A DNA stretch of 61,163 bases, the filler included. It is 8 parts of 8 records of this genome, joined end to end, with 100 filler letters (N's around TTAATTAATTAA, not from the genome) between each part and the next. Parts side by side here need not be neighbours in the genome. Positions count along the whole stretch, not along the records: positions 34,139 to 44,888 come from SRR31147125_8869; 7 more parts are not named here. One strand, written 5' to 3'. Position numbers and translations under genes: made by a program. Of this stretch, positions 35,898-50,223 are shown piece after piece (position 1 is the first letter of the stretch; every line of letters begins with the position of its first letter). Under the pieces are notes generated by a model, which searched no databases, was not told the DNA's origin, and saw only the letters and a list, made by a program, of their open reading frames with translations.

Positions 35898-36096
35898 AAT
35901 TTGTCGCACAAAAATCAGAATAAATTATATAATAACAAAGGTTCTTTTTAAATTTTTTAAGAAGAAAATCATAATTCATCTAAAATTAACGATTCGTTTA
36001 CAATTCATAAAAAATTAATGCAAAAATCTTTCGATGTTGTGTATTTTAGAAGATATTTAACTGTTGGTTTTATAATGCAATAAAAAGTTTACTGTC

Positions 36097-37200
36097 ATGT
36101 TACTGAAAAAGTTTTGGATAATTCTGTTGATTTCCGGTATGTTTCAATTCGCCGGTGCGCAATCGCGAAAAATTATTGATGTTCCTAATATAAAAGGCTA
36201 TCAAACACTAAAGTGCGATTTTCATATGCACACTGTTTTTTCCGATGGAATGGTTTGGCCAACTGTGCGTGTGCAAGAAGCATGGAACGAAGGTTTAGAT
36301 GCCATTTCAATAACCGACCATATTGAATACCGGCCACATTCGAAAGATGTTGTAGCAGACCATAACCGCTCGTTCGAAATTGCAGAACCATTATCGAAAC
36401 AACTGGATATTATTTTGGTGAAAGGCGCCGAAATAACACGCAGCATGCCACCCGGGCATCTTAATGCTTTGTTTATTACAAATGCAAATTTACTGGAACG
36501 CGAAGATGTGAACGATGCCATAAGAGAAGCTCGCGAACAGGGAGCGTTTATTCTTTGGAATCATCCGGGATGGAAGGCACAACAACCCGACACAACACTT
36601 TGGTGGGACGAGCACTCTTATTTGCTCGAAAATAATTTACTGCACGGAATTGAGGTGTACAATTATAGTTCGTATTACCCCGAAGCTCTGGATTGGGCCA
36701 ACGAAAAGAAGCTAACCATGTTTGCCAATTCGGATGTGCATGCGCCAATGATAGTTGAAGAAGGACACCGCCCTTTAACTTTGGTTTTTGCCAAAAGTCG
36801 CACCGAAGGCGGAATTAAAGAAGCTTTGTTTAGCCGACGTACAGCCGTGTATTTCGATAATACTTTAATGGGGCAGTCGGCCCTGCTCGAACCTTTGTTT
36901 TTTGCTTCGCTTAGTTACGATAAGTCGCCAATAAGATTAAACAATGGGGGAACAAAAGTAATTTACATAACCAACAATTCTGATGTTACCTACGAGTTGG
37001 ATCTTGTTCAGCCGGGAGTTGGTTTCGATGCACCACAAACAGTATTGTTAAAAGCACATCAGGTAACACCAATAATCTTAAGTGGTAATTCGGAAGAAAT
37101 ACACAATGTTAAAAATTTGAATGTGTATTACGCCGTAAAAAATATGCTAACCGCATCTAACGAAAATCTGGTGGTTACATTTACTTTTAAGAATAACTAA
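36097..37200 (+). CDS. Secreted PHP-domain phosphodiesterase
   Basis: DFHMHTVFSDG, ITDHIE, NHPGW and NSDVH motifs. Confidence 0.85.
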   Translation: MLLKKFWIILLISGMFQFAGAQSRKIIDVPNIKGYQTLKCDFHMHTVFSDGMVWPTVRVQEAWNEGLDAISITDHIEYRPHSKDVVADHNRSFEIAEPLSKQLDIILVKGAEITRSMPPGHLNALFITNANLLEREDVNDAIREAREQGAFILWNHPGWKAQQPDTTLWWDEHSYLLENNLLHGIEVYNYSSYYPEALDWANEKKLTMFANSDVHAPMIVEEGHRPLTLVFAKSRTEGGIKEALFSRRTAVYFDNTLMGQSALLEPLFFASLSYDKSPIRLNNGGTKVIYITNNSDVTYELDLVQPGVGFDAPQTVLLKAHQVTPIILSGNSEEIHNVKNLNVYYAVKNMLTASNENLVVTFTFKNN

Positions 37201-37417
37201 ACAAAATTCTTTAGCGAATAAATTAGTATTTAGTTGGAACAGAGTTCGACTTCCGACGTTTTGTCGGGACAGGTCCGCTCACTGAGACTGTCAGACAGAG
37301 CAAAGTCTGGTAATCAATCGGCTGAAAAATTATTCTACCAAATAGTCTAAGCAACTTGTTGTTGTGAACAAAGCAGCGCAGTGTGCGTTATCTGCGTGAA
37401 CGTATAATCGGGCAATA

Positions 37418-38085
37418 ATGGCTGCAAAAAAACAAAAAGAATCGTCACTTTTCGAGAAGGTAATTACAAACAACCGCGAAATATCGCCGGGAGTTCATCT
37501 TATTTCGTTTAAACGCGATTTTAATTTTTTACCCGGACAGGTTGTAAAAATTGGTGTCGATACAGAACATCCTCCACGCATTTACAGCATTTGCAGCGGG
37601 AATCACGAAGAAGAAGTACATGTTCTTTTCAATATAAAAGACGATGGTTTTTTAACGCCTAAAATGGCTGCAATGATTCCAGGAGACCAGATATTGATTT
37701 CGGAGCCTTACGGAAGTTTTTAGGGACTGAAGAACCGGCCTGGTGGATTGCGTCTGGTACCGGAATAGCTCCTTTTTACAGTATGTTTCAATCAGGAGAA
37801 GGGGAGAATAAAACATTGATTCACGGTGTAAGTTATTTAAACCAGTTTTATTTCGAAGACGAGCTGGAGTGGGCGTTTGGAGAGAATTACATACGTTGTT
37901 GCTCGCGCGAAAGTTCGTGTAATGTTATTCCCGGAAGGGTAATTAATTATCTGGCATCGGTAGAAGAATTTCCGTCTGTGAAATATTTTCTCTGTGGGAA
38001 TGCGTTAATGGTTGTTGAAGTACGAGATTTGCTTATTGAAAAAGGCGTTCCGTACGAAAATATACTTGCCGAGATTTATTTCTAA
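37418..38085 (+). CDS. FAD/NAD(P)-binding oxidoreductase (ferredoxin-NADP reductase-like), frameshift at ~37720
   Basis: PGQ, RIYSI, PYGSF|LG..IASGTGIAPF and FLCGN..MV; one missing T in a T5 run. Confidence 0.85.
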
Positions 38086-38158
38086 AGTTATTTTGTTACG
38101 GCTTGTAATATTCGTAAATTACGCTTCGAATTATTGTACATAATTTAACAAAACAAAA

Positions 38159-38869
38159 ATGAAACGATTATTTATTTTAACCACCCTGGTGCTGTTTGCA
38201 TTGGTAAGCACACAAGCACAAACCCTCGACAAAGTTCTCGATAAACATTTCGAAGCCACCGGCCATAAAAAAATGGCAGCACTTAAAACCTTTAGTCAGA
38301 AAGCAAAAATGAGTATGATGGGAATGGAAATGCCCATGAATATTCAGTTTAAAAAGCCCAATAAATTTAGAGTTGAAATGGAAATGATGGGCCAAAAAAC
38401 CGTTAGCGCTTTCGATGGCGAAAAAGGTTGGATGATTAACCCAATGATGGGATCAGCTGTTCAGGATTTGGAAGGCGATCAGTTGAAACAGTCAATGTCG
38501 CAGGCCGATATGGAAGGCGAGCTGTTTAATTATGCTGAAAAAGGACACTCGGCCGAGTTAATTGGAAAGGTAAATGCCGATGGTAAGGAAGCGTACAAAA
38601 TAAAACTTACTACAAAAGATGGTACGGAGCAGACCTATTTTATTGATGCCAATTCGTACCTGGTTCTTAAAATGAAAACCAAAGCTGAAGCGATGGGGCA
38701 AGCGGTTGAAATTGAAACCAACATGGTTGAATACAAAGAGATTGAAGGAATAATGGTGCCAATGAAAATTGAAATGGTTATGCCAATGGGAAAAAGCACT
38801 ATGATAATGGAAGAAGTAAAATTTAATATCGATATCGACGACTCGGTATTTGCACGTCCGGCAAACTAA
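38159..38869 (+). CDS. LolA-like / outer-membrane lipoprotein-sorting family secreted protein
   Basis: Signal peptide; KKPNKFRVE, FDGEKGW, YFIDANSYL and NIDIDDSVFARP. Confidence 0.65.
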   Translation: MKRLFILTTLVLFALVSTQAQTLDKVLDKHFEATGHKKMAALKTFSQKAKMSMMGMEMPMNIQFKKPNKFRVEMEMMGQKTVSAFDGEKGWMINPMMGSAVQDLEGDQLKQSMSQADMEGELFNYAEKGHSAELIGKVNADGKEAYKIKLTTKDGTEQTYFIDANSYLVLKMKTKAEAMGQAVEIETNMVEYKEIEGIMVPMKIEMVMPMGKSTMIMEEVKFNIDIDDSVFARPAN

Positions 38870-38892
38870 CTAATACAACATAAATATGTTTG

Positions 38893-38917
38893 GGGGCGGG
38901 AAACTGCCCCTTTTTTT
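38893..38917 (+). terminator. Intrinsic terminator
   Basis: GGGGCGG-GAAA-CTGCCCC followed by T7. Confidence 0.85.
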
Positions 38918-39065
38918 GATCGTTTTTTAAGGATTGAAACAGAACTTAACACGAAATACGCACCGATTTTTATTTGTTAACGTTTTTACTCATCTTATTT
39001 AACTTCCGTTAAAACAATACCCCAAACAATTGTTTAAACTTTGAAAAAAACTTAAAATAAGCAGT

Positions 39066-39581
39066 ATGAAATTTAAATATCTACTTTTAATTATTTCAAT
39101 TTTAATTTTTAGCAGTGGCCTTAAAGCTCAGCAAACCTTAAAAATTGGGCATGTAAATATTCAGGAATTGGTACAAACACATCCAAGTATGGACAGTATT
39201 AGAGCCGTAATTGAAAGAGAGAGGGCCGACATGGAGGAAATCTATAAAGAAATGATTACCGAGCACGAAGCTAATATTAAAGAGTTTGAAGCGGAAAGTG
39301 CCGGTTACTCCGATTTTGTGAAAGAAACCAAGCAAAATGCAATTTTAGAGCAGTCGCAAAAAATACAATCCTACAACCAAAATGCACAACAGATGCTTCA
39401 ACAGCGCAATATGGAGCTTATTCAGCCCATTTACAAGGAAATTAACGATGAAATTACCAACATTGCCGGGCATAACAATTTCAGCTATATTCTCGATGTA
39501 AGTACTGGCTCGGTGGCCTATATATCGCCCGAAAGCGAGGATATTACTCCTTTGGTTTTAGCTGCTATAAAAGGGGAATAA
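39066..39581 (+). CDS. ompH: OmpH/Skp outer-membrane chaperone
   Basis: LKIGHVNIQEL, coiled-coil body, and YILD..DITPLVL. Confidence 0.85.
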   Translation: MKFKYLLLIISILIFSSGLKAQQTLKIGHVNIQELVQTHPSMDSIRAVIERERADMEEIYKEMITEHEANIKEFEAESAGYSDFVKETKQNAILEQSQKIQSYNQNAQQMLQQRNMELIQPIYKEINDEITNIAGHNNFSYILDVSTGSVAYISPESEDITPLVLAAIKGE

Positions 39582-39592
39582 GTCTTTGATCT

Positions 39593-39677
39593 GTTCACGC
39601 AAAGAAAAGAAGGTACGCAAAGTTTGCAAAGAATTATTTTTGCGTCCTCTGCGAAAGCTTAGCATCTTTGCGTGAAC
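39593..39677. repeat. 85-bp palindromic REP/MITE-like element, family A, copy 1
   Basis: Perfect 13-bp terminal inverted repeats GTTCACGCAAAGA / TCTTTGCGTGAAC with internal CGCAAAG / CTTTGCG-like units. Confidence 0.85.
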
Positions 39678-39714
39678 CATATACTCAATAAAATTTAATC
39701 AAAACACTATTCCC

Positions 39715-39749
39715 CGCCGTTAAATAAACCAACTCCACCGTTAAATAAA
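39715..39749 (+). promoter_or_regulatory. Candidate LytTR-binding direct repeat
   Basis: CCGTTAAATAAA at 39717 and 39738 (21-bp period), upstream of the LytS-type kinase. Confidence 0.6.
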
Positions 39750-39811
39750 TTATCCTTTTTATTTCCGATTATTCCTGCCAAATTTGGGTAACATAATTTA
39801 ATTTTAAGGTT

Positions 39812-42800
39812 ATGAAACTATTCCCAATAATACTAACGCTACTTATTTTTGTTTGCAACTTCGCTTTTGCCCAAAACGAAAATATTCTTCTTCGCCCTGA
39901 AAATGGTAAGGAATATTTCTACCGTTTTACCGACGCACAATACATTGCCGACGAAGAGGGCAAAAAATTCTCTGAGTTTAGAAAACAAAAAACTCTGCAC
40001 ATAAAATTTTCGAATGTTCAGCCCGAAAACAAAGAGCTTTTGCAAGTAAAAGTTATCCAAAATAAAGCCGAAAAACCACTGGATAAACCTGTTCAGGTTA
40101 CCGATTATATGTATCCCTATTTTGAGAGTACTTATTTTGGGAAGCGTTACGATGATTATTACGAGGAATTGTTGTGCGACCTTGAATTTCAGTACGAGTT
40201 TGATTACGAAACCAGCGAAGTAAAATTGTACAATCGCACTGATGTTCTTCTTGAAGTTCGTAAAAGGTTAAAGCATAAACAATTCGATGAAAAAGGAATT
40301 GAAAGTTATACTACTGAATTTAACGAAAAAGGTATTCCGGAAATTACAAATCGGTTGAATTCCATTTACCGCATTTCGCAAGATTTCCAGGCCGAGATTA
40401 ATAACGGGGAAAGGTTTAAATCCACTGTTAGTGTGAAAGATAAGTTTGCCAATATTTCTGCAAAAGCATGGGACCGAGAGCCCGGATTAAACGCATTAAA
40501 TATTATTTACAATATAAAAGAATCCTATCTAAAGAATTATAACTGGGTAGAGATTGATTCTGGCAAACAAAACGGATGGTCGCGAAGAAATCCTGAAGCG
40601 CGCTATTATCGCGAGCAAGATATTTGTTTGCTCAGACAAAAAATTATTTCAGAAAATCGGTTTACTGTTTCAGGAAAAATCGAAAATCCGAAATACAAAA
40701 AAGTTACGCTGGCGGTTTTACAAAATCCGTATGGTACAGAATTACATCAGGAATCTGTTTTTCTGGATGAAAACAATACATTTCATATCGAAACCGAATT
40801 AAATCATCGGGGAATTGTAATGCTGCAATTTGGGCACACCAACCAATCGCGCGAATTACCAATTCTTTTAATATATGCCGAACCGGGTGGCAGAATTGAA
40901 CTAAACGACAGCGGTGAAACATTCCTTGAAAACCTTGAATTTACCGGCGATTTTTGCAATGCCTCCAAAATGCTTTACGAGTTTCGGAAGAAATATAACC
41001 TCGATGATAAATACACTTTGGAAACTACTTTTTGGCGAACCATAAGTTCTAATATGGTATATACAGACTTTGAAGGTGCAGTAAAAAATTATGATGCTTT
41101 TGCAGCTACCTGTAAAAATGAAATTGATGAAACGGCTTTTGAGTTTATCAACAAAGAAATGAAGGCATACCTTAGTGCCGGAACTATGTACTATCTCGAT
41201 GGATACAGTAGAACATTAAATGCTAAATTCAAGAATTATTATTTTAAAGATGTTGAGAACGTTGACGTTCAATTATTTCAGAGCTTTTTTGACAACAATT
41301 CTGTTTCAGAGCTTTATAACGAGTTTGGAATTTTTTCGCGTTTTTTTGCCCGGGAATATTTGTCGTATCAAATTGGCAATACAGTTAAATCACAGAAATT
41401 ATTTAGAACAGGATTTGATCGTTATGTAACTCTTACCTCCTATTATTGGCTTCGTTACGATTTTTCTTTAAGTCTCGAACTTGGTCGGGTTATTCTAAAC
41501 GGCCATGCCTATTATTCCTCTGTAGCCGATGTTATTCAACAATTAAAAAGAAAAGCAAAGAATGAGGTTACTCAAAACGATGAAATTGTTGAAAAAGAGA
41601 TAGATGAGTATGCCGACTTGTTAATGCGTTTGTGCAACAATAAGGAATTTACGCAAGGCTTAAAAGAATTATACGCCAACCATAAAAACTGGGAAAAACA
41701 AGATTTTGTGCCGTCTGATAAATTTTTTAATACCAAAGGCGAAGAGGTGTATTTAAAAGATTTTATGGGCGAAAAACCAACGGTATTTTATGTTGCTAAT
41801 AATTGGGGTGCCGAGCGTTATTATTTCGACGATTTAAGTAAAGAAAACCCCGACATCAATTTTGTGATGATAATGGAAGGTAACATTTTTCAGGAATGGC
41901 AAGATTATATGAAACGAGCTGAACCGGTTGCGCACCAATTGCTACTTATAAATACCGATAAAGGCTTAAAGGATATTTTTAGAAAAGGTACGCACCATTT
42001 TATTATTTACGATAAAAACGGAGTTCGTTTTGCCTTTGCCGGAAATATGGCGAGTGCTAAAGACCTGGCTAAACAAAGCCTGTTTCCTAAAAAAAGAGCT
42101 GAATAAATCGCAACTGCAAATTGTTATTTGGGTTTTACTTATTGTCCTAACCACCTTAATTATAGGTTTAATTATATGGAAGTGGAGGGTTCGCCGGCAA
42201 TTCCGAAAGGAGGAGCAAAAACGAAGGCTTCGCGAGCTGGAACTAACAGCAATTCGGAGCCAGATGAATCCCCATTTCCTTTTTAACTCGTTGAACTCGG
42301 TGCAAAATCTTGTTCAGCAAAACAAGGGCCGTGAGGCCCATTTGTATTTATCCGACTTTGCCGGATTGATACGAAAAGTACTTAACAACTCCGAGAAAGA
42401 AGAGGTGTCGCTGGCCGAAGAACTGGAAATGATTCAGCAGTATTTAAACCTCGAAAAATTACGATTCGATTTTGAATTTGATATCTGTGTTGATGAGAAA
42501 ATAGATACGCACAACACGCTGGTGCCATCGATGCTTTTGCAGCCTTTTGCGGAGAATGCAGTAATTCATGGCCTGCAAAATAAAGAAGGGAAGCGGCAGT
42601 TAAAGCTCAGAGTAACAAAAGAAACTACGCGCTTAGCGGTTCCAAACCGCTTAGCGCATAATACAGGCGGCATCATTAAAATTACCATCGAAGACAACGG
42701 AATTGGTCGCGAAGCAGCAAAAGAAATAGCCAAACAAAAAAATGGCAAAGGCACAAAACTAATGAAAGAACGCCTCGAAATCCTTCAGCAAAAACAAGGC

Positions 42801-42875
42801 GAAAGATATAGTTTAACAACAGTTGATTTGGAGGAAGGAACGCGGGTGGAAATTGTTTTGCCGGAGGAAAGCTGA
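39812..42875 (+). CDS. LytS/YehU-type sensor histidine kinase with a large periplasmic domain; frameshift at A7, ~42089-42095
   Basis: Signal peptide, TM helix, AIRSQMNPHFLFNSLNS, LLQPFAENAVIHG and IEDNGIG; removing one A fuses the two ORFs. Confidence 0.85.
42626..42660. repeat. 35-bp hairpin repeat (family B) located in-frame inside the kinase
   Basis: TACGCGCTTAGCGGTTCCAAACCGCTTAGCGCATA; 30/35 identical to intergenic 44312-44346. Confidence 0.7.
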
Positions 42876-42880
42876 AAAGA

Positions 42881-42964
42881 GTTCTCGCAAAGGAAAGAAG
42901 GAGCGCTAAGAGCGCGAAGACTTTTTTGTGTCCTTTGCGTAATCTTAGCGCACTTTGCGTGAAC
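42881..42964. repeat. Family A palindromic repeat, copy 2 (5' flank of GxxExxY)
   Basis: GTTCTCGCAAAGGAAAGAAGG...CTTTGCGTGAAC. Confidence 0.85.
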
Positions 42965-43011
42965 CGGCTCTTATTTGTAAATTGGATAATCAAACATTAA
43001 ATCCACAAATT

Positions 43012-43389
43012 ATGAATGAGAACGACCTTTCTTACAAAACTATTGGAGCGGCTATTGAAATTCACAGAGTAGTAGGTCCTGGATTATTAGAATCGTGTTA
43101 CGAAAATGCATTAGTGTTTGAATTAAGAGAAATGGGATTTGACGTAAAACAACAAGTACCAATGCCTTTTGTGTATAAAGACGTTAAACAGGATGTTGGT
43201 TACAGAATTGATTTAATAATCGATAATAAAATTTTGGTAGAAGTGAAATCTGTAGAAACATTAGCTCCTGTTCATTATGCACAAACTTTAACATACTTGA
43301 GATTATCTGGTCTAAAACTTGGGCTTTTGATTAATTTCAACTCTCATATTTTGAAAGAAGGAATACATAGAATGGTAAATAATTTATAA
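43012..43389 (+). CDS. GxxExxY protein (PD-(D/E)XK nuclease superfamily)
   Basis: IGAAIEIHRVVGPGLLESCY, RIDLII..VEVK, AQTLTYL and GLLINF; 125 aa. Confidence 0.92.
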   Translation: MNENDLSYKTIGAAIEIHRVVGPGLLESCYENALVFELREMGFDVKQQVPMPFVYKDVKQDVGYRIDLIIDNKILVEVKSVETLAPVHYAQTLTYLRLSGLKLGLLINFNSHILKEGIHRMVNNL

Positions 43390-43394
43390 AATTG

Positions 43395-43469
43395 GTTCAC
43401 GTAAAGGAAAGAAGGAGCGTGAACATTTTTTTGCGTCCTCTGCGAAACTTTAGCGCTCTTTGCGTGAAT
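43395..43469. repeat. Family A palindromic repeat, copy 3 (3' flank of GxxExxY)
   Basis: GTTCACGTAAAGGAAAGAAGG...TTTGCGTCCTCTGCGAAACTTTAGCGCTCTTTGCGTGAA. Confidence 0.85.
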
Positions 43470-43477
43470 TTTTAAAT

Positions 43478-44221
43478 ATGCAAATTAACTCAATACTAGT
43501 AGACGACGAAAAACACGGCCGCGAAAACCTGGCCGGGATACTTAACGAGCATTGCCCGGATGTTGCGCTTGTTGGCGAAGCCGATTCGGTTGAGGCTGCC
43601 ATTCATCTTATTCAAAACAAAAAGCCCGACCTTGTTTTTCTCGATATTGAAATGCCCAAAGCCAACGGTTTTCAGTTGTTGGAATATTTTTCGGAAATAA
43701 ACTTCGAGGTGATTTTTGTAACGGCCTACGACAATTACGCCATAAAAGCCATTCGTTTTTCTGCTGCCGATTATATTCTGAAGCCCATAAACTACAACGA
43801 ATTAAAATTGGCTGTAGAAAAGGTAGCTCAACGCATTCGCCAAAAAGAAGAGAATGAACGAATTCGTGAACTGCACCGTAATATAAGACAACCTGAAAAC
43901 CCTCGCATTGGCTTACCCACCGGCGACCGTATTGAATTTGTTGATGTACGAAATATTATTCATTGCAAGGGAGAAGGCAACTACACCCACATTTACCTTG
44001 CTGACAAAAGGCATTTGCTGGTGGCAAAAACGCTGGTTGAATTTGAAGAATTGCTTCACGAATATTCCTTTATCCGCACCCACAAATCGCACCTGGTAAA
44101 CTTAAAACATGTTACCGCATACTTAAAAAATGATGGTGGAATTTTACAGCTTTCGAATGGTGATGAGGTGGCCATTTCGCGGCGAAGGAAAGAGTTGGTT
44201 TTGGAAAAGCTGAGGGAATAG
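43478..44221 (+). CDS. LytTR-family response regulator
   Basis: VDDE, PDLVFLDIEMP and DYILKP receiver motifs; FIRTHKSHLVN and ISRRRK LytTR motifs. Confidence 0.93.
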   Translation: MQINSILVDDEKHGRENLAGILNEHCPDVALVGEADSVEAAIHLIQNKKPDLVFLDIEMPKANGFQLLEYFSEINFEVIFVTAYDNYAIKAIRFSAADYILKPINYNELKLAVEKVAQRIRQKEENERIRELHRNIRQPENPRIGLPTGDRIEFVDVRNIIHCKGEGNYTHIYLADKRHLLVAKTLVEFEELLHEYSFIRTHKSHLVNLKHVTAYLKNDGGILQLSNGDEVAISRRRKELVLEKLRE

Positions 44222-44587
44222 TTTCTCGCAAAGGAAAGAAGGAACGCAAAGTTCGCTAAGAATTTTAGAACAGGGCAGAGGGCTAAACGATAAAGTTATG
44301 CGCTTGAGAGATACGCGCTAAGCGGTTCTATACGGCTAAGCGCATAGAATGCTGCGTTGAAAAAGGATGTTCCTGTAAATTGATAATGAGAAGTTCACAT
44401 GTAACGAAAAATGCCGTCAGGAACAAGTACGCTGACGGATTTTGTTGCAAGAACCTGACAGCGTCAGCAGACCTGTCAGCGTTCGAATTAATGTTCGATA
44501 CGCGTTAATAAATAAAAACAAAAAAAAGCGCAAAGTAAAAAGATATACTTTGCGCCCTTTGCGAAATCTCCGCGTCTTTGCGTGAAC
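44222..44587. repeat. Mosaic of palindromic repeats between convergent genes (family A arms at 44222-44261 and ~44527-44587, family B at 44312-44346, other hairpins)
   Basis: TTTCTCGCAAAGGAAAGAAGGAACGCAAAG; CCGTCAG..CTGACGG; CTGACAG..CTGTCAG; CTTTGCGCCCTTTGCG..TCTTTGCGTGAAC. Confidence 0.7.
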
Positions 44588-44590
44588 TTT

Positions 44591-44888
44591 CTATATCGAA
44601 TTATTCTTGATAAAATCAATTAATTCCTGTTTGTAGGCAAAAGCCATTCCAACCACAGTATCGGCAGCACCGTAGTAAACTGCAATTTTTTCACCATCGC
44701 TAAGAGCAGCACAAGGGAAAACTACGTTTGGCACATCGCCTGCTAATTCGTACGGAGCAGCCGGAGCCAATAAATAAGATTGTGTGCGGTACAGCACTTT
44801 CGACGGATCTTCCAGTACGAGTAAAGCAGCACCCATCGAGTAACGGAAACCGTTACAAGTGTTAATTACTCCGTGGTAAAATTCCAGC
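44591..44888 (-). CDS. Glycoside hydrolase family 130 (mannoside phosphorylase-like), C-terminal fragment
   Basis: [28 protein letters not shown] and YYGAADT. Confidence 0.85.
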
Positions 44889-44988
44889 NNNNNNNNNNNN
44901 NNNNNNNNNNNNNNNNNNNNNNNNNNNNNNNNTTAATTAATTAANNNNNNNNNNNNNNNNNNNNNNNNNNNNNNNNNNNNNNNNNNNN
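44889..44988. other. Artificial contig spacer
   Basis: N44-TTAATTAATTAA-N44. Confidence 0.99.
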
Positions 44989-45125
44989 CGGCAGATGATA
45001 TCGCCTTTTTGAAATGCCTGCTTTGTAAACAGCCCTGCAATCTCCTTCACCTGTCCTTTGGGCACAGACGAAAAAAGCGGGGCGTTTGAAAGGAAATCTA
45101 CAAGGTCCTGTACATCTGTTTCCAT
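44989..45125 (-). CDS. Cyclic-nucleotide-binding domain protein, N-terminal fragment
   Basis: FLSNAPLFSSV..FQKGDIIC; GGAGG RBS. Confidence 0.7.
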
Positions 45126-45129
45126 GGTC

Positions 45130-45519
45130 TCACGTTGTTGTCCTCCTTTTGATGAATCCAAATGCGGCGACACCTATAACAGCCCCTACCGCATTTAGAT
45201 AAATATCCAGCAGGCCTCCATACCGTCCTCTGACAAAAGACTGATGAAACTCATCCATACAGCCATATGAGATGGCAATGAAAAGCGAAAGAATCAGGGC
45301 TGATACTTGATTATACCTTAGTAAGGTAAAACTTCTGAACCATAAAAAAGAAAGGGCTGCATAAAGTGGAATATGCAAAAAATTTTGAAGAACAGGATCA
45401 AGGTTGGTTAAAAATGTAAAATTATCCGGACCACCATCCATGGGTATGGAAGACTCAATAAAGATCAGCACCATTAACGAAATGGGCCATACAAATATAA
45501 AGGATCTCTTTTTCGACAC
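45130..45519 (-). CDS. VanZ-family membrane protein
   Basis: IFIESSIP, HIPLYAAL and YGCMDEFHQSFVRGR..DIYLN. Confidence 0.85.
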   Translation of the reverse strand: MSKKRSFIFVWPISLMVLIFIESSIPMDGGPDNFTFLTNLDPVLQNFLHIPLYAALSFLWFRSFTLLRYNQVSALILSLFIAISYGCMDEFHQSFVRGRYGGLLDIYLNAVGAVIGVAAFGFIKRRTTT

Positions 45520-45520
45520 A

Positions 45521-46881
45521 TCACGCCTTATCAAATGCACCCACCTTTGAAACCACATACCGGTATTTTCCCGATGCATCCCTTGGAATGTCGTCCACTC
45601 TATTTATGGTAACCTTTACAGCATCTCCCATCCGTTTTTTAAATCCGGCCACGATCCGTGAATCTCCATCCCCAGGATAGAGGTTCTCATGAATTTTCAC
45701 CAATACCTCAACGTCATCCACGCTGTGCTGAAGAATCTTGAATTCATCCACCCCTTCAATATCCCGAACCACATAAATCAATGACAATGCATGCTGCCAC
45801 CGGCCGTCAGGGGTAACGATAAAATCCGTGGTCCGGCCTTTGATATTCTGGATAATACTCCAGGTCCGGCCGCATTTGCACCCAGGCGCTCCGGGTTGGG
45901 CCACATCCCCTGTCCGGTAGCGGATAAAGGGCATTCCCCATGCATCCAGATGGGTCAGGACCACTTCCCCGTCCTCCCCAGGCCCCACAGGCTCTCCGTT
46001 TTTCAGATATTCAACAATATAGTTTGAATCTATAACATGGTATTTGCCTTCTTTGCATTCCTGGCATACAAAGCCGCCTTCCCGGCTGCCGTAACAATCC
46101 ACAACAGGAACCTTGCCGAAAAACCGGCGAATGGATTTTCGCTGATTCTCATAAAGGACCTCAGCAGTGGAAAAAACCACCTGAACTCCGATATTTGTCA
46201 GATCATATCCCTGTTTTTCTGCCATATCGCAGAACAGCGCAATGGTGGAGGGGTATCCGAACACACATTTGGGTCTGAACGCCTTTATTTTCTTCACCAT
46301 ATCAGGAACCTGGGCCTGGGATATTTCAAATGCACTGATAAGCAGGTCATTGGTTATCTTATCCCTGAAGTCCTTGATCTTGTCCTGCTTGGTGATTTCC
46401 AGGGGAGAGCCCCATAGGTACAATTCCTTATCCCCTATGTCACAATCCCACCACTGGTGGGTCAGTGCCCTGGCTGCTGCATCATAGGCCTGGCGCCGCC
46501 TGTCAAAATAAAATACCAGGGGTTTTCCCGAAGACCCTCCTGTATTATAGCGGGTGAGCCCCCTGGAGAATCATGCCACTTCATACCTTCAAGGTTCTGC
46601 CGGATCTCTTCCTTGGAAAGCAGGGGCAAAACCTTTATATCATCAATGCACGTCATTTTTTCCGGATCAAAGCCGGCGCCCTTAAATCGTTTTGTGTAAA
46701 ATGGAATATTGTTCTTGGCATGGATTAAAAGCGCCTTCAGTTTTTTGAATTGCAGCGCTTTCAATTCCGGTTCAGGCAGGTACTGCTCTTTTGAAAGCTG
46801 ATCCAGAAACTTGTAGGTATCCCGGCCTAAAATTTTTTCGTGCAGGGGAAAAATAAGATGCTTTACAATTTTACTATGCAT
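45521..46881 (-). CDS. Phenylacetate-CoA ligase/CapK-like adenylate-forming enzyme; frameshift ~46560
   Basis: IPFY..LPLLSKE, NTGGSSGKP (after the shift), YGSREG, MPFIRYRTGD, GR.TD and RDASGK. Confidence 0.85.
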
Positions 46882-46901
46882 AGGGATCTCCTTTTTTATG
46901 C

Positions 46902-47733
46902 CTAATTCAACAAGGTTGACACAAGGAACAGAAAGCGTTCTGCCAGTATTTTTCTTCCCTTTTCATTCAGATGGGTGCCGTCGTAGGTATAGGAAGAAAC
47001 CAAATTATTATACCGTTTACCCTTAAAAACGAAAAAATTACGCTCTCCATTGACCTTTGTTGATTGAATTTTTGCAAAATCAAAAAATTCGCTTTTATTT
47101 CCATAATTTTTTCTGAGTAATTCATTATATTTATTGGCCACAAGATTATGCCGGTACTCCCATATTTCATCATAATCCAAAAGCTTTTTATCCGGGTTTT
47201 AATCGTTGTTTTTGAATGAATTAAGGGAAATGTGCCATGAAGAAAAATGGTGTCGGGATATCTTTGCTTCAGCAGGGCATAGGCCTCTTTATAATCCTGC
47301 AACACTGCGTTTAATTCATGTCTTTTATAAAACGGCGTAAATCGCAGATACGCAATATCAATTGTTTTTCTCAGCGTATTGTCAACCAGGTGGATATATT
47401 GTGCAGCAATCTTTTGGGGTGACCCATCACCGCTGACCCAGGCATGAAAAATACCGTTGGCACCGAATTTTGAAGAAACAGCAAGATCCGTGATCGTGAT
47501 CTTTACGTCAGAAGATTTTTTCTGAAGCTCACCTATGCCCTGGATCAAATTGTTCCCCACAGAACGGTGACCTATGAAAATATTACCGGTCTTTAGCTTT
47601 TTCCACTGGTTTAAGGAGATTCTTTGATTATTGTTTGCCTCACTCCCCCAAAGGATTCATTGGGTATTCCAATAATCAAAAAACAAAAAATACTGATCAG
47701 AAGAAGGTTTGAAAGGCTGTATTTTTCACCCAT
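46902..47733 (-). CDS. SGNH/GDSL-like hypothetical protein (two homopolymer frameshifts)
   Basis: Signal peptide from 47733, IFIGHRSVGNN, and C-terminal DGTHLNEKG. Confidence 0.6.
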
Positions 47734-47746
47734 AAAAAACGCTTCC

Positions 47747-49108
47747 TTATTTCAACGATAGTGTTTTTTGATTCAGTTCATAGGCGCCGATATCAATTCT
47801 CTTCTTAATCTTTCGCTTCAGTTTCCCGGGAAACGGCAGGGGCATATATTTTACTTTCAATGGTATTTTTATTGTTCCCCTATCAACCAACAATGAGGTC
47901 TTTGATGGCAGATAAGCAATCTTTCCCTTGGTTGTTACCTGTTCCATCCCTCCGAAATAGTTGTTCATCATCCCTTTAAGGTCTGCTCCAAAGGGTAAGA
48001 GGTTATTTGAGCCCTGAACACTGCCCGTTCCTATCCAGATCTGCTTTCCCCCGAAAAAGGCGTTATTATATAAAATGGCGCTGCATCCCATCCTGTTGAT
48101 ATTCAAAAAACCATCAAGCCCTTTATTCCTATAATGAACCGTATTATTAAAAAAATAAAGAATCCCGTTTCGCCCCTGGCCAATAATTTTTCCCTTTTCA
48201 TCGGTTTTATCGCCGCCGAACAGAACCATTTTGGGATTTCGCACCTTTTTTCCGCTGATGATAACATTTCCGTAAACAAAAGCATTGGCCCTTGGATATT
48301 TTGGAGATTCAACCAGATCTATCTGCCGGCTCATCCCCCCTGGATCCAATTGTACCTGATCACGGCCGTCTGGCTCCGGTCTTTTATATTATTCCCGTCA
48401 GAGTGCAGCTCTCCGAAGCGATTAAATTCAACAATGGTTGTCTTGGCGCATAAATAAACATTGTGCCCCCAGTGGGTACCTGAAAAATCCCCGTTGTTAT
48501 ATATGATATTCCGGGACAATAAGAGATTATCCACCCAGGGATAGTAAGAAGACTGCACACCGACACAGCATGAATGGATCCGGCATTTTCTTATTTTAAC
48601 ATGTTTCCCCTTTTTCACCAAAATACCATTGGCATTGGATGCATATTTAACCTTTTTCCCTTTAAAATAAAAATATTGGGAATTATTTGCATTTTTTATT
48701 TCCAGGCCTTCGATGATAATATTGTCAGCAGGCTTATCGCAGCCGACTATGATCAACCCTCTATCGATTAAACTCTTATTTTCAGATTCCTGGAAATGGA
48801 CAGCACCCCTGCCGTCCAGCACAGGCAACCGGCCTTTGGCATCTGGAATTCCCCTGATAATAATAGGCTTTTTACGGGTGCCGGACCGATTTATGGATAT
48901 TTTTTCCCGATATGCTTTTTTATTATAGTGTATTTGGACAATATCTCCAGAAGATAGTGAATCCCAATCCAGATCAGATAGCTTTTTATATGTTTTGCTG
49001 TGCCCGATACCATAAACCTCGGCGTATGAATCTACCGATAATATACAAAAAAAGGTAAAAAGCCGTGATGAGGATCTTATTACACTTTATTTTATTATTA
49101 GGCCGCAA
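47747..49108 (-). CDS. Right-handed beta-helix polysaccharide-degrading-like protein (frameshifts ~49050 and ~48337; start approximate)
   Basis: GDIVQIH..YREK..SGTRKKPIIIRG..PVLDG, GHNVY, NNIKDRS..IRYNWI and IDIGAYE. Confidence 0.65.
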
Positions 49109-49135
49109 AGCGTTATATATCCATATTGATTTCCA

Positions 49136-50223
49136 TTAGACCAATTCTTTATATATCAACATGAGTCTCTCAACCGAGAGTTCTATACTAAACTCCTGTA
49201 ATAGTCTTTTATGACCAGCTTGCCCCATTTTTAAAGCCTGGGCGGGATTATCCAAAATAGATACAATGCTTTTGCATAATGCGGCCACATCTCCGGCATT
49301 ATACAGGTATCCTTCTTGCCCATCAGTCACAGCCTCGGGAATTGCTCCTACCCGGGTTACTATAACGGGAATGCCTTCTGCCATCGCCTCTAACATCGCC
49401 ATTGGAAGACCTTCATCGTAGGATGGCAAGCAAAAAATATCTGTACGGTCCAAATACGCTTTTTTTCTAAACCTAGCTTGGGACCCGGTATGTCAATCTG
49501 GTCCGTAATTCCCAAATCTTCTGCTAATGATTGTAACCGACCTCGCATACCCAATTCAGCTTCTGAACCGAGAAGGGCAACTTTTACTTGCTGAGAATTA
49601 GAAAGCTCGGCAACGGCTCTCAACAAGTCGGATTGCCCTTTTCGCCTTTCATAATTTGCCACGCAGGTGATACGCTGAGGCGTATGCCATTTTCGAAACA
49701 CTTTAGAAGAGACTGGAACGCCATTAGGCACCACCGCAATGCGCTCCGGTTCAACCCACCCAGAAAGAACACTGCGCCATTCTTCGCCCAATACCACCAC
49801 CCGATCACACAATTGAAATACTCTACGAGCCATCCAGGCCTTAGGTAAATTAAAGGATTTAAGAAACCTATGAAATTGAGCACCGTGGATGTGTAACACG
49901 ACCTTACCGCCAAGTAAATGAACAAGCATCACATCAAGAGCATTTCGCCAAAAAGTAAACCAACTGCAAGTATGAATATGCACGACATCTGGTCGCCAAT
50001 AGAGGACCAAGCGGCACAGCCTCATAACCAAGCGTAACTGGGCCATAATTCCTTGAAACAGAGATCGGTCAGCCGAAGTTGTTTTGGCATTATTATGAAG
50101 CCGTACTTGACAGTGCTTTTCCAGTGTACAGAGTAAATTTTCAACAACGACGGCCATTCCACCAATAGGAGGAGGAAGGGGGCCAACTTGTAGGATTTTG
50201 AGTTCAGAACCTGGTTTTTTCAT
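49136..50223 (-). CDS. Glycosyltransferase family 4; frameshift ~49460
   Basis: GPLPPPIGGM, HIHG, VVPNGV, KGQ.DL and LPSYDEGLPMAMLEAMA. Confidence 0.88.

Follow-up and report, generated by a model that had tools for sequence, protein, structure and literature searches.

Insertion sequences with terminal inverted repeats can have MITE derivatives, and TnsA requires TnsB/C. Another arrangement is the REPtron, in which a RAYT/TnpA-REP gene goes with REP, BIME and REPIN repeats (PMC3333891, PMC3733652). The available part of PMC3333891 describes E. coli REPtrons from which the gene was excised while the BIMEs remained, or where hicAB stands in its place. PDDEXK_3, the family to which the GxxExxY proteins belong, is given in the accessible sections of PMC3424549 as a family of unknown function with multiple transfers, and those sections do not name repeats. 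One further source, in the portion available, mentions GxxExxY as the neighbour of a reverse transcriptase. A literature search on GxxExxY/PF13366/TIGR04256 and on REP/RAYT, REPIN, MITE and heptamer repeats, which left subscription journals mostly uncovered, returned no description of the system reported here.

We analyzed a stretch of 61,163 nucleotides (the window) made of contigs joined by N spacers. The GxxExxY gene lies in a 10.7-kb contig (34139–44888), as do all the tandem-heptamer arms of the window, and the genes, palindromes, and arms located below in the window are on the + strand. The original prediction was that a GxxExxY gene is framed by two palindromes and lies between a sensor kinase and a LytTR regulator, with gene-free copies of the repeats nearby, and both parts of this layout were confirmed. 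The host gene upstream of the element is the 3′ part of a LytS-type sensor kinase (42030–42875; PF06580). Palindrome 1 (42881–42964) begins 5 bp past the kinase stop, with heptamers at 42886, 42904, and 42913 in its left arm and at 42933, 42944, and 42953 in its right arm. It is followed by the GxxExxY gene (ATG at 43012, stop at 43389; 125 aa, PD-(D/E)XK fold, TIGR04256/PF13366), by palindrome 2 (43395–43469), which is degenerate and has a shortened left arm, and by the downstream host gene, a response regulator with Response_reg and LytTR domains (43478–44221). The gene-free copies are a palindrome of the same family just past ompH (39593–39678), with arms in the equivalent position in G004 (D. 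orientale) and G009, a left arm abutting the LytTR stop (44223–44261), and a right arm (44547–44587). Between the last two lie some 285 bp of non-coding sequence that contain other hairpins; within this interval (44262–44546), unrelated CTGACAG-type hairpins near 44420–44490 match high-depth contigs of other organisms. The GC content of the GxxExxY gene was 31% versus 42% in both neighbours, and among 54 related loci exceeding 8 kb it fell below that of the surroundings in 52.

The 5′ part of the kinase (39812–42106) and the 3′ part are in different frames, the break lying at an A-run (42089–42095). The run counts 7 A in the window and 10 in one contig of a possible source sequencing run; relatives have 9 A and encode the kinase in one frame as a single protein of 1004–1009 aa. 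Either an assembly error in the homopolymer or a slippery tract may account for the split. The contigs of one DNA run, possibly the source of the window, contained no joint bypassing the GxxExxY gene, and the promoter and terminator scans gave results at chance level.

The repeats consist of arrayed 7-bp units of the CGCAAAG type, with heptamers mostly spaced 9–12 bp apart (most often 9, 10, or 12 bp). The arm end, GTTC(A/T)CGCAAAG, was invariant across nine aligned copies, seven of them from the kinase/LytTR junction. Unlike REPtron repeats, which have GTAG at the hairpin foot, these arms are heptamer arrays, and the GTAG tetranucleotide was not found in the alignment of palindrome copies. 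When folded as DNA and compared with shuffled sequences, palindrome 1 (z −4.7) and the copy at 39593–39678 (z −5.4) were both far better, and palindrome 2 folded weakly (z −1.7). Stably pairing arms, together with inserts that occupy the stop/start junctions of operons, could indicate a cassette acting at the RNA level in the manner of a 23S rRNA intervening sequence, with base-pairing of its arms in the transcript allowing the insert to be excised or tolerated within operons. We regard this as highly improbable: many repeat copies sit between convergent or divergent genes; the GxxExxY gene has the orientation of its upstream neighbour in only 41 of 56 cases and of its downstream neighbour in 38 of 52 (about 73%, counted without a control); the variation among repeats preserves a clade-tied heptamer sequence and not pairing alone; and the spread of the DNA would be left unexplained.

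Among profiles, the window protein matched only TIGR04256 (E 9.2e-42, 142 bits against a curated cut-off of 35) and PF13366 (PDDEXK_3; E 9.5e-40, 136 bits against a cut-off of 22). A structure model built on 91 sequences reached a pLDDT of 94.8, compared with 38 without an alignment. VIA-align related this model to restriction-endonuclease-like folds (Z up to 8.2). The top Foldseek rows were lambda exonuclease, Cas4 SSO0001, and the Hjc resolvase, all of them weak (E 0.003 or weaker); these fold scores do not separate Cas4, lambda exonuclease, and Hjc from other PD-(D/E)XK proteins, nor do they single out a function. Unlike the Cas4/RecB-like nucleases, GxxExxY has neither the Fe-S cysteine set nor a helicase partner. 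The window protein contains the motif H88-x2-Q91-x3-Y95, and we take the conserved HxxQxxxY of GxxExxY to resemble the RecB/Cas4 motif. In 214 proteins, the catalytic residues D67, E77, and K79 were present in 214, 212, and 214 sequences, respectively, and E27, D67, E77, K79, Q91, and Y95 were conserved in 210–214. The model and the conservation support the view that GxxExxY is a minimal PD-(D/E)XK protein with an intact catalytic site, predicted to be an active nuclease. No real match was obtained in a PDB sequence search, no usable match in an Atlas search outside PF13366, and no family at E 0.1 when two proteins were searched against PADLOC (2023 library). The profile and fold matches of the GxxExxY protein included no transposase of DDE, HUH, tyrosine, or serine chemistry. 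With TnsA, XisH, YhgA/Rpn, and PDDEXK_2, which the available parts of PMC3424549 and PMC5350276 tie to DNA rearrangement, GxxExxY shares the fold superfamily; it differs from them in belonging to another Pfam family.

A genome scan provided 66 loci of relatives from several phyla, 62 of them with 150 bp on both sides of the gene, and an arm was called when two or more heptamers occurred in tandem within 150 bp. Arms were present at 52 of the 62 GxxExxY genes; the other ORFs at these loci, a control that excluded two additional GxxExxY genes, had them in 28 of 525 cases. Both sides carried arms at 34 of the 62 versus 2 of the 525. The repeats are thus strongly enriched beside GxxExxY genes, contrary to what would be seen if they were as frequent beside other genes. 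With the wider motif, no arm was called at the remaining 10 loci, several of which show variant heptamers by eye. The heptamer motif had been widened after inspecting the 62 loci, so the held-out sets matter: arms were found at 50 of 58 loci in Prolixibacteraceae, 21 of 26 in the phylum of a Desulfobacterales genome, 14 of 22 in archaea, and none of 20 held-out loci with distant viral GxxExxY homologues. The homologues on viral contigs (L270–L296) have 32%–40% identity, no arms, and another loop after the NF motif.

GxxExxY was found in 85 of 121 genomes of the D. orientale family (Prolixibacteraceae), with 351 matches; the family is also present in other bacterial phyla and in archaea, often in multiple copies. 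A narrow arm pattern occurred 336 times in the 121 genomes versus 19 times for a reversed control. It was detected in 49 of the 85 genomes with the gene versus 7 of the 36 without it, and at least four copies were present in 22 of 85 versus none of 36. The expected relation between repeat count and gene copy number was also observed (Spearman 0.49 over the 121 genomes; 0.44 after genome size), with counts that ignore phylogeny, come from many incomplete genomes, and miss other heptamer types. Other types escape the narrow pattern, which was absent from 36 of the 85 gene-bearing genomes. Forty regions with repeat copies, fetched from five genomes, were nearly all gene-free and intergenic, between ordinary genes. 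A nuclease gene flanked by dispersed intergenic palindromes, whose presence goes with repeat abundance, is also what the available parts of PMC3333891 and PMC3733652 describe for REPtrons. The GxxExxY enzyme is of the PD-(D/E)XK type, whereas the REPtron enzyme is HUH/Y1, and GxxExxY differs further in having multiple copies per genome (the 351 matches fall in 85 genomes) and near-identical units at unrelated sites.

The commonest layout was left arm–gene–right arm, with the gene within one palindrome (18 of 62 loci), and this is another difference from the REPtron. A palindrome on each side of the gene, as originally proposed, holds for the window; full palindromes on both sides were present at only 3 of the 62 loci.

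Repeat sequence followed the protein clade, as had also been predicted. On a tree of 87 labelled proteins, the heptamer class required 9 changes versus 28.8 when shuffled, and none of 500 shuffles was as low. With 214 proteins, heptamer position 7 required 6 changes versus 34 shuffled (187 rows), and position 2 required 17 versus 61 (183 rows). Several protein–heptamer types occur side by side in the D. orientale genome, which indicates that the heptamer type tracks the protein and not the host. Clade covariation would also arise from plain co-inheritance of the gene and its arms. At residue 113, in the loop after the NF motif, T-ending cases had Asp in 7 of 9 and G-ending cases in 0 of 78; the held-out types gave 5 of 6 and 0 of 72, respectively. 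In a subfamily whose loop is shorter, 20 of 21 cases were T-ending. The Asp113 link rests on about four changes, two of them on well-supported branches, and an independent-pairs test could not reach significance. The loop at residues 110–117 is a candidate recognition loop and residue 113 a candidate recognition residue. Other loops were seen with other heptamers: NFY(T/V)KSL-like loops with CACAGTG in L373, L387, L411, and L413 (Y110 in three of the four), NFHCVNI with CACATAG in L316 and L318, and NFGxxPK with CACGAAA in L343 and L398.

Near-identical copies were found in the archaeal genome G191, a single contig with six GxxExxY matches. Two arm–gene–arm units of 627–628 bp are 98.7% identical, have unrelated flanks, and lie 1.46 Mb apart. 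A second family comprises three proteins that are 95%–97% identical, in a common block with sharp inverted ends. Of 20 regions chosen by arm matches, 17 had gene-free arm pairs of 204–690 bp, one pair having a degenerate arm, and a few of these pairs appear to carry the element of the other family in their loop. G221 and G222 carry no element at the site of L364, one of the G191 copies, where G212 has a palindrome of another family; at the site of L365, also a G191 copy, G212 has a degenerate arm of the same family. At five of the six positions that differ, the left arm of L365 carries the base of the gene-free consensus, which is the one hint that arms may recombine with each other. This organization resembles insertion sequences with MITEs, or the TIRtrons of the available part of PMC3733652: a single gene between long inverted arms, gene-free derivatives with the same arms, and nested insertions. 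Unlike those elements, it has no DDE, HUH, tyrosine, or serine transposase, its protein has only 125 aa, and visual inspection of five gene-bearing and 17 gene-free copies, for which there was no strain-level empty site for comparison, showed no target-site duplication. No strand-transfer domain was found either.

Two other proposals were set aside. A RAYT as the true mobilizer was unsupported, as G191 gave no Y1 match and, in four Prolixibacteraceae genomes, an arm was near only 1 of 22 Y1 loci (three long-ORF hits excluded). A 13-nt extension common to two G191 copies was considered as a co-conversion tract; a similar tract borders the degenerate G212 arm, so the extension is probably part of the element end.

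To follow the kinase/regulator junction across relatives, 115 loci were examined. In 68 of them the regulator followed the kinase directly, and 47 were dropped (contig ends, other gene order). Sixty distinct regulators of sufficient length were compared; L001, which is filled, was left out as partial. The regulators with at least 70% identity had five junctions filled with GxxExxY, six with repeats only, and four empty, so that the predicted empty sites do exist in relatives; the remaining three held a palindrome–MNT/HepT–palindrome, an Xre-RES module, and, in one case, another arrangement. Among more distant regulators, 38 of 42 junctions were empty. In the regulator tree, the filled L004 and the empty L175 are sisters. 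Where the gene is syntenic it retains its repeats, contrary to the refuting case of a stably syntenic gene without them. Six syntenic GxxExxY copies had a pN of 0.05–0.14 and a near-saturated pS, like the neighbour genes. Taken together, the mostly empty distant junctions, the filled and empty sister regulators, and the purifying pN/pS values suggest by parsimony a junction that was ancestrally empty and an element that has long been resident there, was lost later in some lineages, and was replaced in one. The best explanation for the window element is that it entered an ancestor of several Prolixibacteraceae lineages and was vertically inherited under purifying selection; in sister lineages, it is best explained as lost, reduced to arms, or replaced. 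A gene that at one locus is vertical, lost leaving its repeats, or replaced by a toxin–antitoxin pair is a further likeness to the REPtron (hicAB in E. coli, as far as the available part of PMC3333891 describes it). An all-against-all flank search gave no strain-level empty site for these arms; seven pairs were listed, none of them clean.

The replacement qualifies the view of the palindromes as the flanking repeats of the gene: they are enriched beside GxxExxY, and in L139/L140 a matching palindrome pair at the junction encloses an MNT-HepT toxin–antitoxin pair instead. ParDE and Xre-RES are also inserted at the junction, without GxxExxY-type arms. Since MNT-HepT, ParDE, and Xre-RES have all been accepted there, the junction appears to be a general landing site. 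Small modules (Xre-RES, ParDE, a PIN gene) recur upstream of the regulator in L096 (G011), L100/L174, L126, and L130–L134, and the Xre-RES module is flanked by direct copies of a different palindrome.

These junctions bear on two other readings. The palindromes could be attC-like sites for an unlinked site-specific recombinase, GxxExxY being one frequent cassette of several. Two different cargos in a palindrome–cargo–palindrome order at one junction (the window and L140) would fit this, as would L209 (G092:C107), where an identical GxxExxY gene and palindrome form a tandem duplicate. The commonest layout, however, has inverted arms around the gene, no integrase was found among the ORFs of 36000–50000, and within single genomes the heptamer type goes with the GxxExxY clade; we therefore think this reading has very little chance of being correct.

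In the second, GxxExxY would be a nuclease with a host role, defensive or toxin-like, the heptamers would serve only as operators or packaging marks, and the repeats would be spread by host recombination or another enzyme, with the gene as cargo. Toxin–antitoxin pairs at the same junction, one of them between the same palindromes, favour it, and strong purifying selection at a stable site is compatible with a host function too. The L365 left arm, with its hint of arm recombination, agrees with it as well. Rpn/YhgA proteins, also PD-(D/E)XK, are listed as putative transposases (PMC3424549) and described as toxic and antiphage (PMC10400941), as far as the available parts of both sources go. MNT-HepT between the same palindromes and this history of the Rpn proteins are the reasons why we keep a host role open. 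We nevertheless consider it unlikely, given that the two proteins had no PADLOC match, that dispersed gene-free copies beside ordinary genes follow gene presence, that so few other ORFs had arms on both sides, and that G191 offered no Y1 match.

Gene and repeats are associated and covary, near-identical copies occur at unrelated sites, both empty and filled sites exist, and the catalytic residues are intact; these findings support the reading of GxxExxY and its arms as a selfish element. We think it probable that they form a family of such elements in bacteria and archaea, in which the nuclease recognizes its own heptamers and cuts the arms while host repair or recombination spreads the copies. 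Of the proposed analogy to RAYT/REP systems, what stands is the link of the gene to repeats of its own, which it probably propagates; the enzyme is not a RAYT, and the near-identical units of G191 are closer to insertion sequences with MITEs. The element works like a REPtron or an insertion sequence with MITEs and lies outside both in its enzyme chemistry.

In the mechanism that we propose, left arm–GxxExxY–right arm would be the gene-bearing form and gene-free arm pairs the non-autonomous, MITE/REPIN-like copies. The 125-aa nuclease would bind its own heptamer type, reading the 3′ bases through the loop after the NF motif (residues 110–117), and would nick or cut at the arms. Host repair or arm–arm recombination would then copy elements into intergenic positions, frequently right behind a stop codon, and the DNA between the arms could be exchanged or dropped, including a swap of cargo. 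Direct binding, cleavage, mobilization, a role of host repair, and action in trans on the repeats are what we infer from the patterns above. There is perhaps an even chance that this is a new class of mobile element, with a 125-aa PD-(D/E)XK nuclease as its sole gene and a heptamer read by a loop, forming orthogonal protein/repeat pairs, several per genome, and moving copies with and without the gene, at times together with foreign cargo, for example a toxin–antitoxin pair, without a classical transposase or target duplication. If GxxExxY drives its repeats, a common and often multi-copy family would gain a function, a large undescribed class of intergenic palindromes would be explained, and mobilization chemistry would extend beyond DDE, HUH, tyrosine, serine, and Cas1. 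Such a nuclease, sequence-specific, very small, and with specificity variants available in nature, might be useful as a tool as well.

Long tandem arrays of gene-free arms were seen in L234 (G004:C66). A short imperfect hairpin of another repeat type lies in frame inside the kinase coding sequence of the window (42629–42661, RLAVPNRLAH); it is also present in L004, where it is doubled, and in L091, and is missing in eight other orthologues. A second copy of this hairpin type is located after the LytTR gene (44314–44345).
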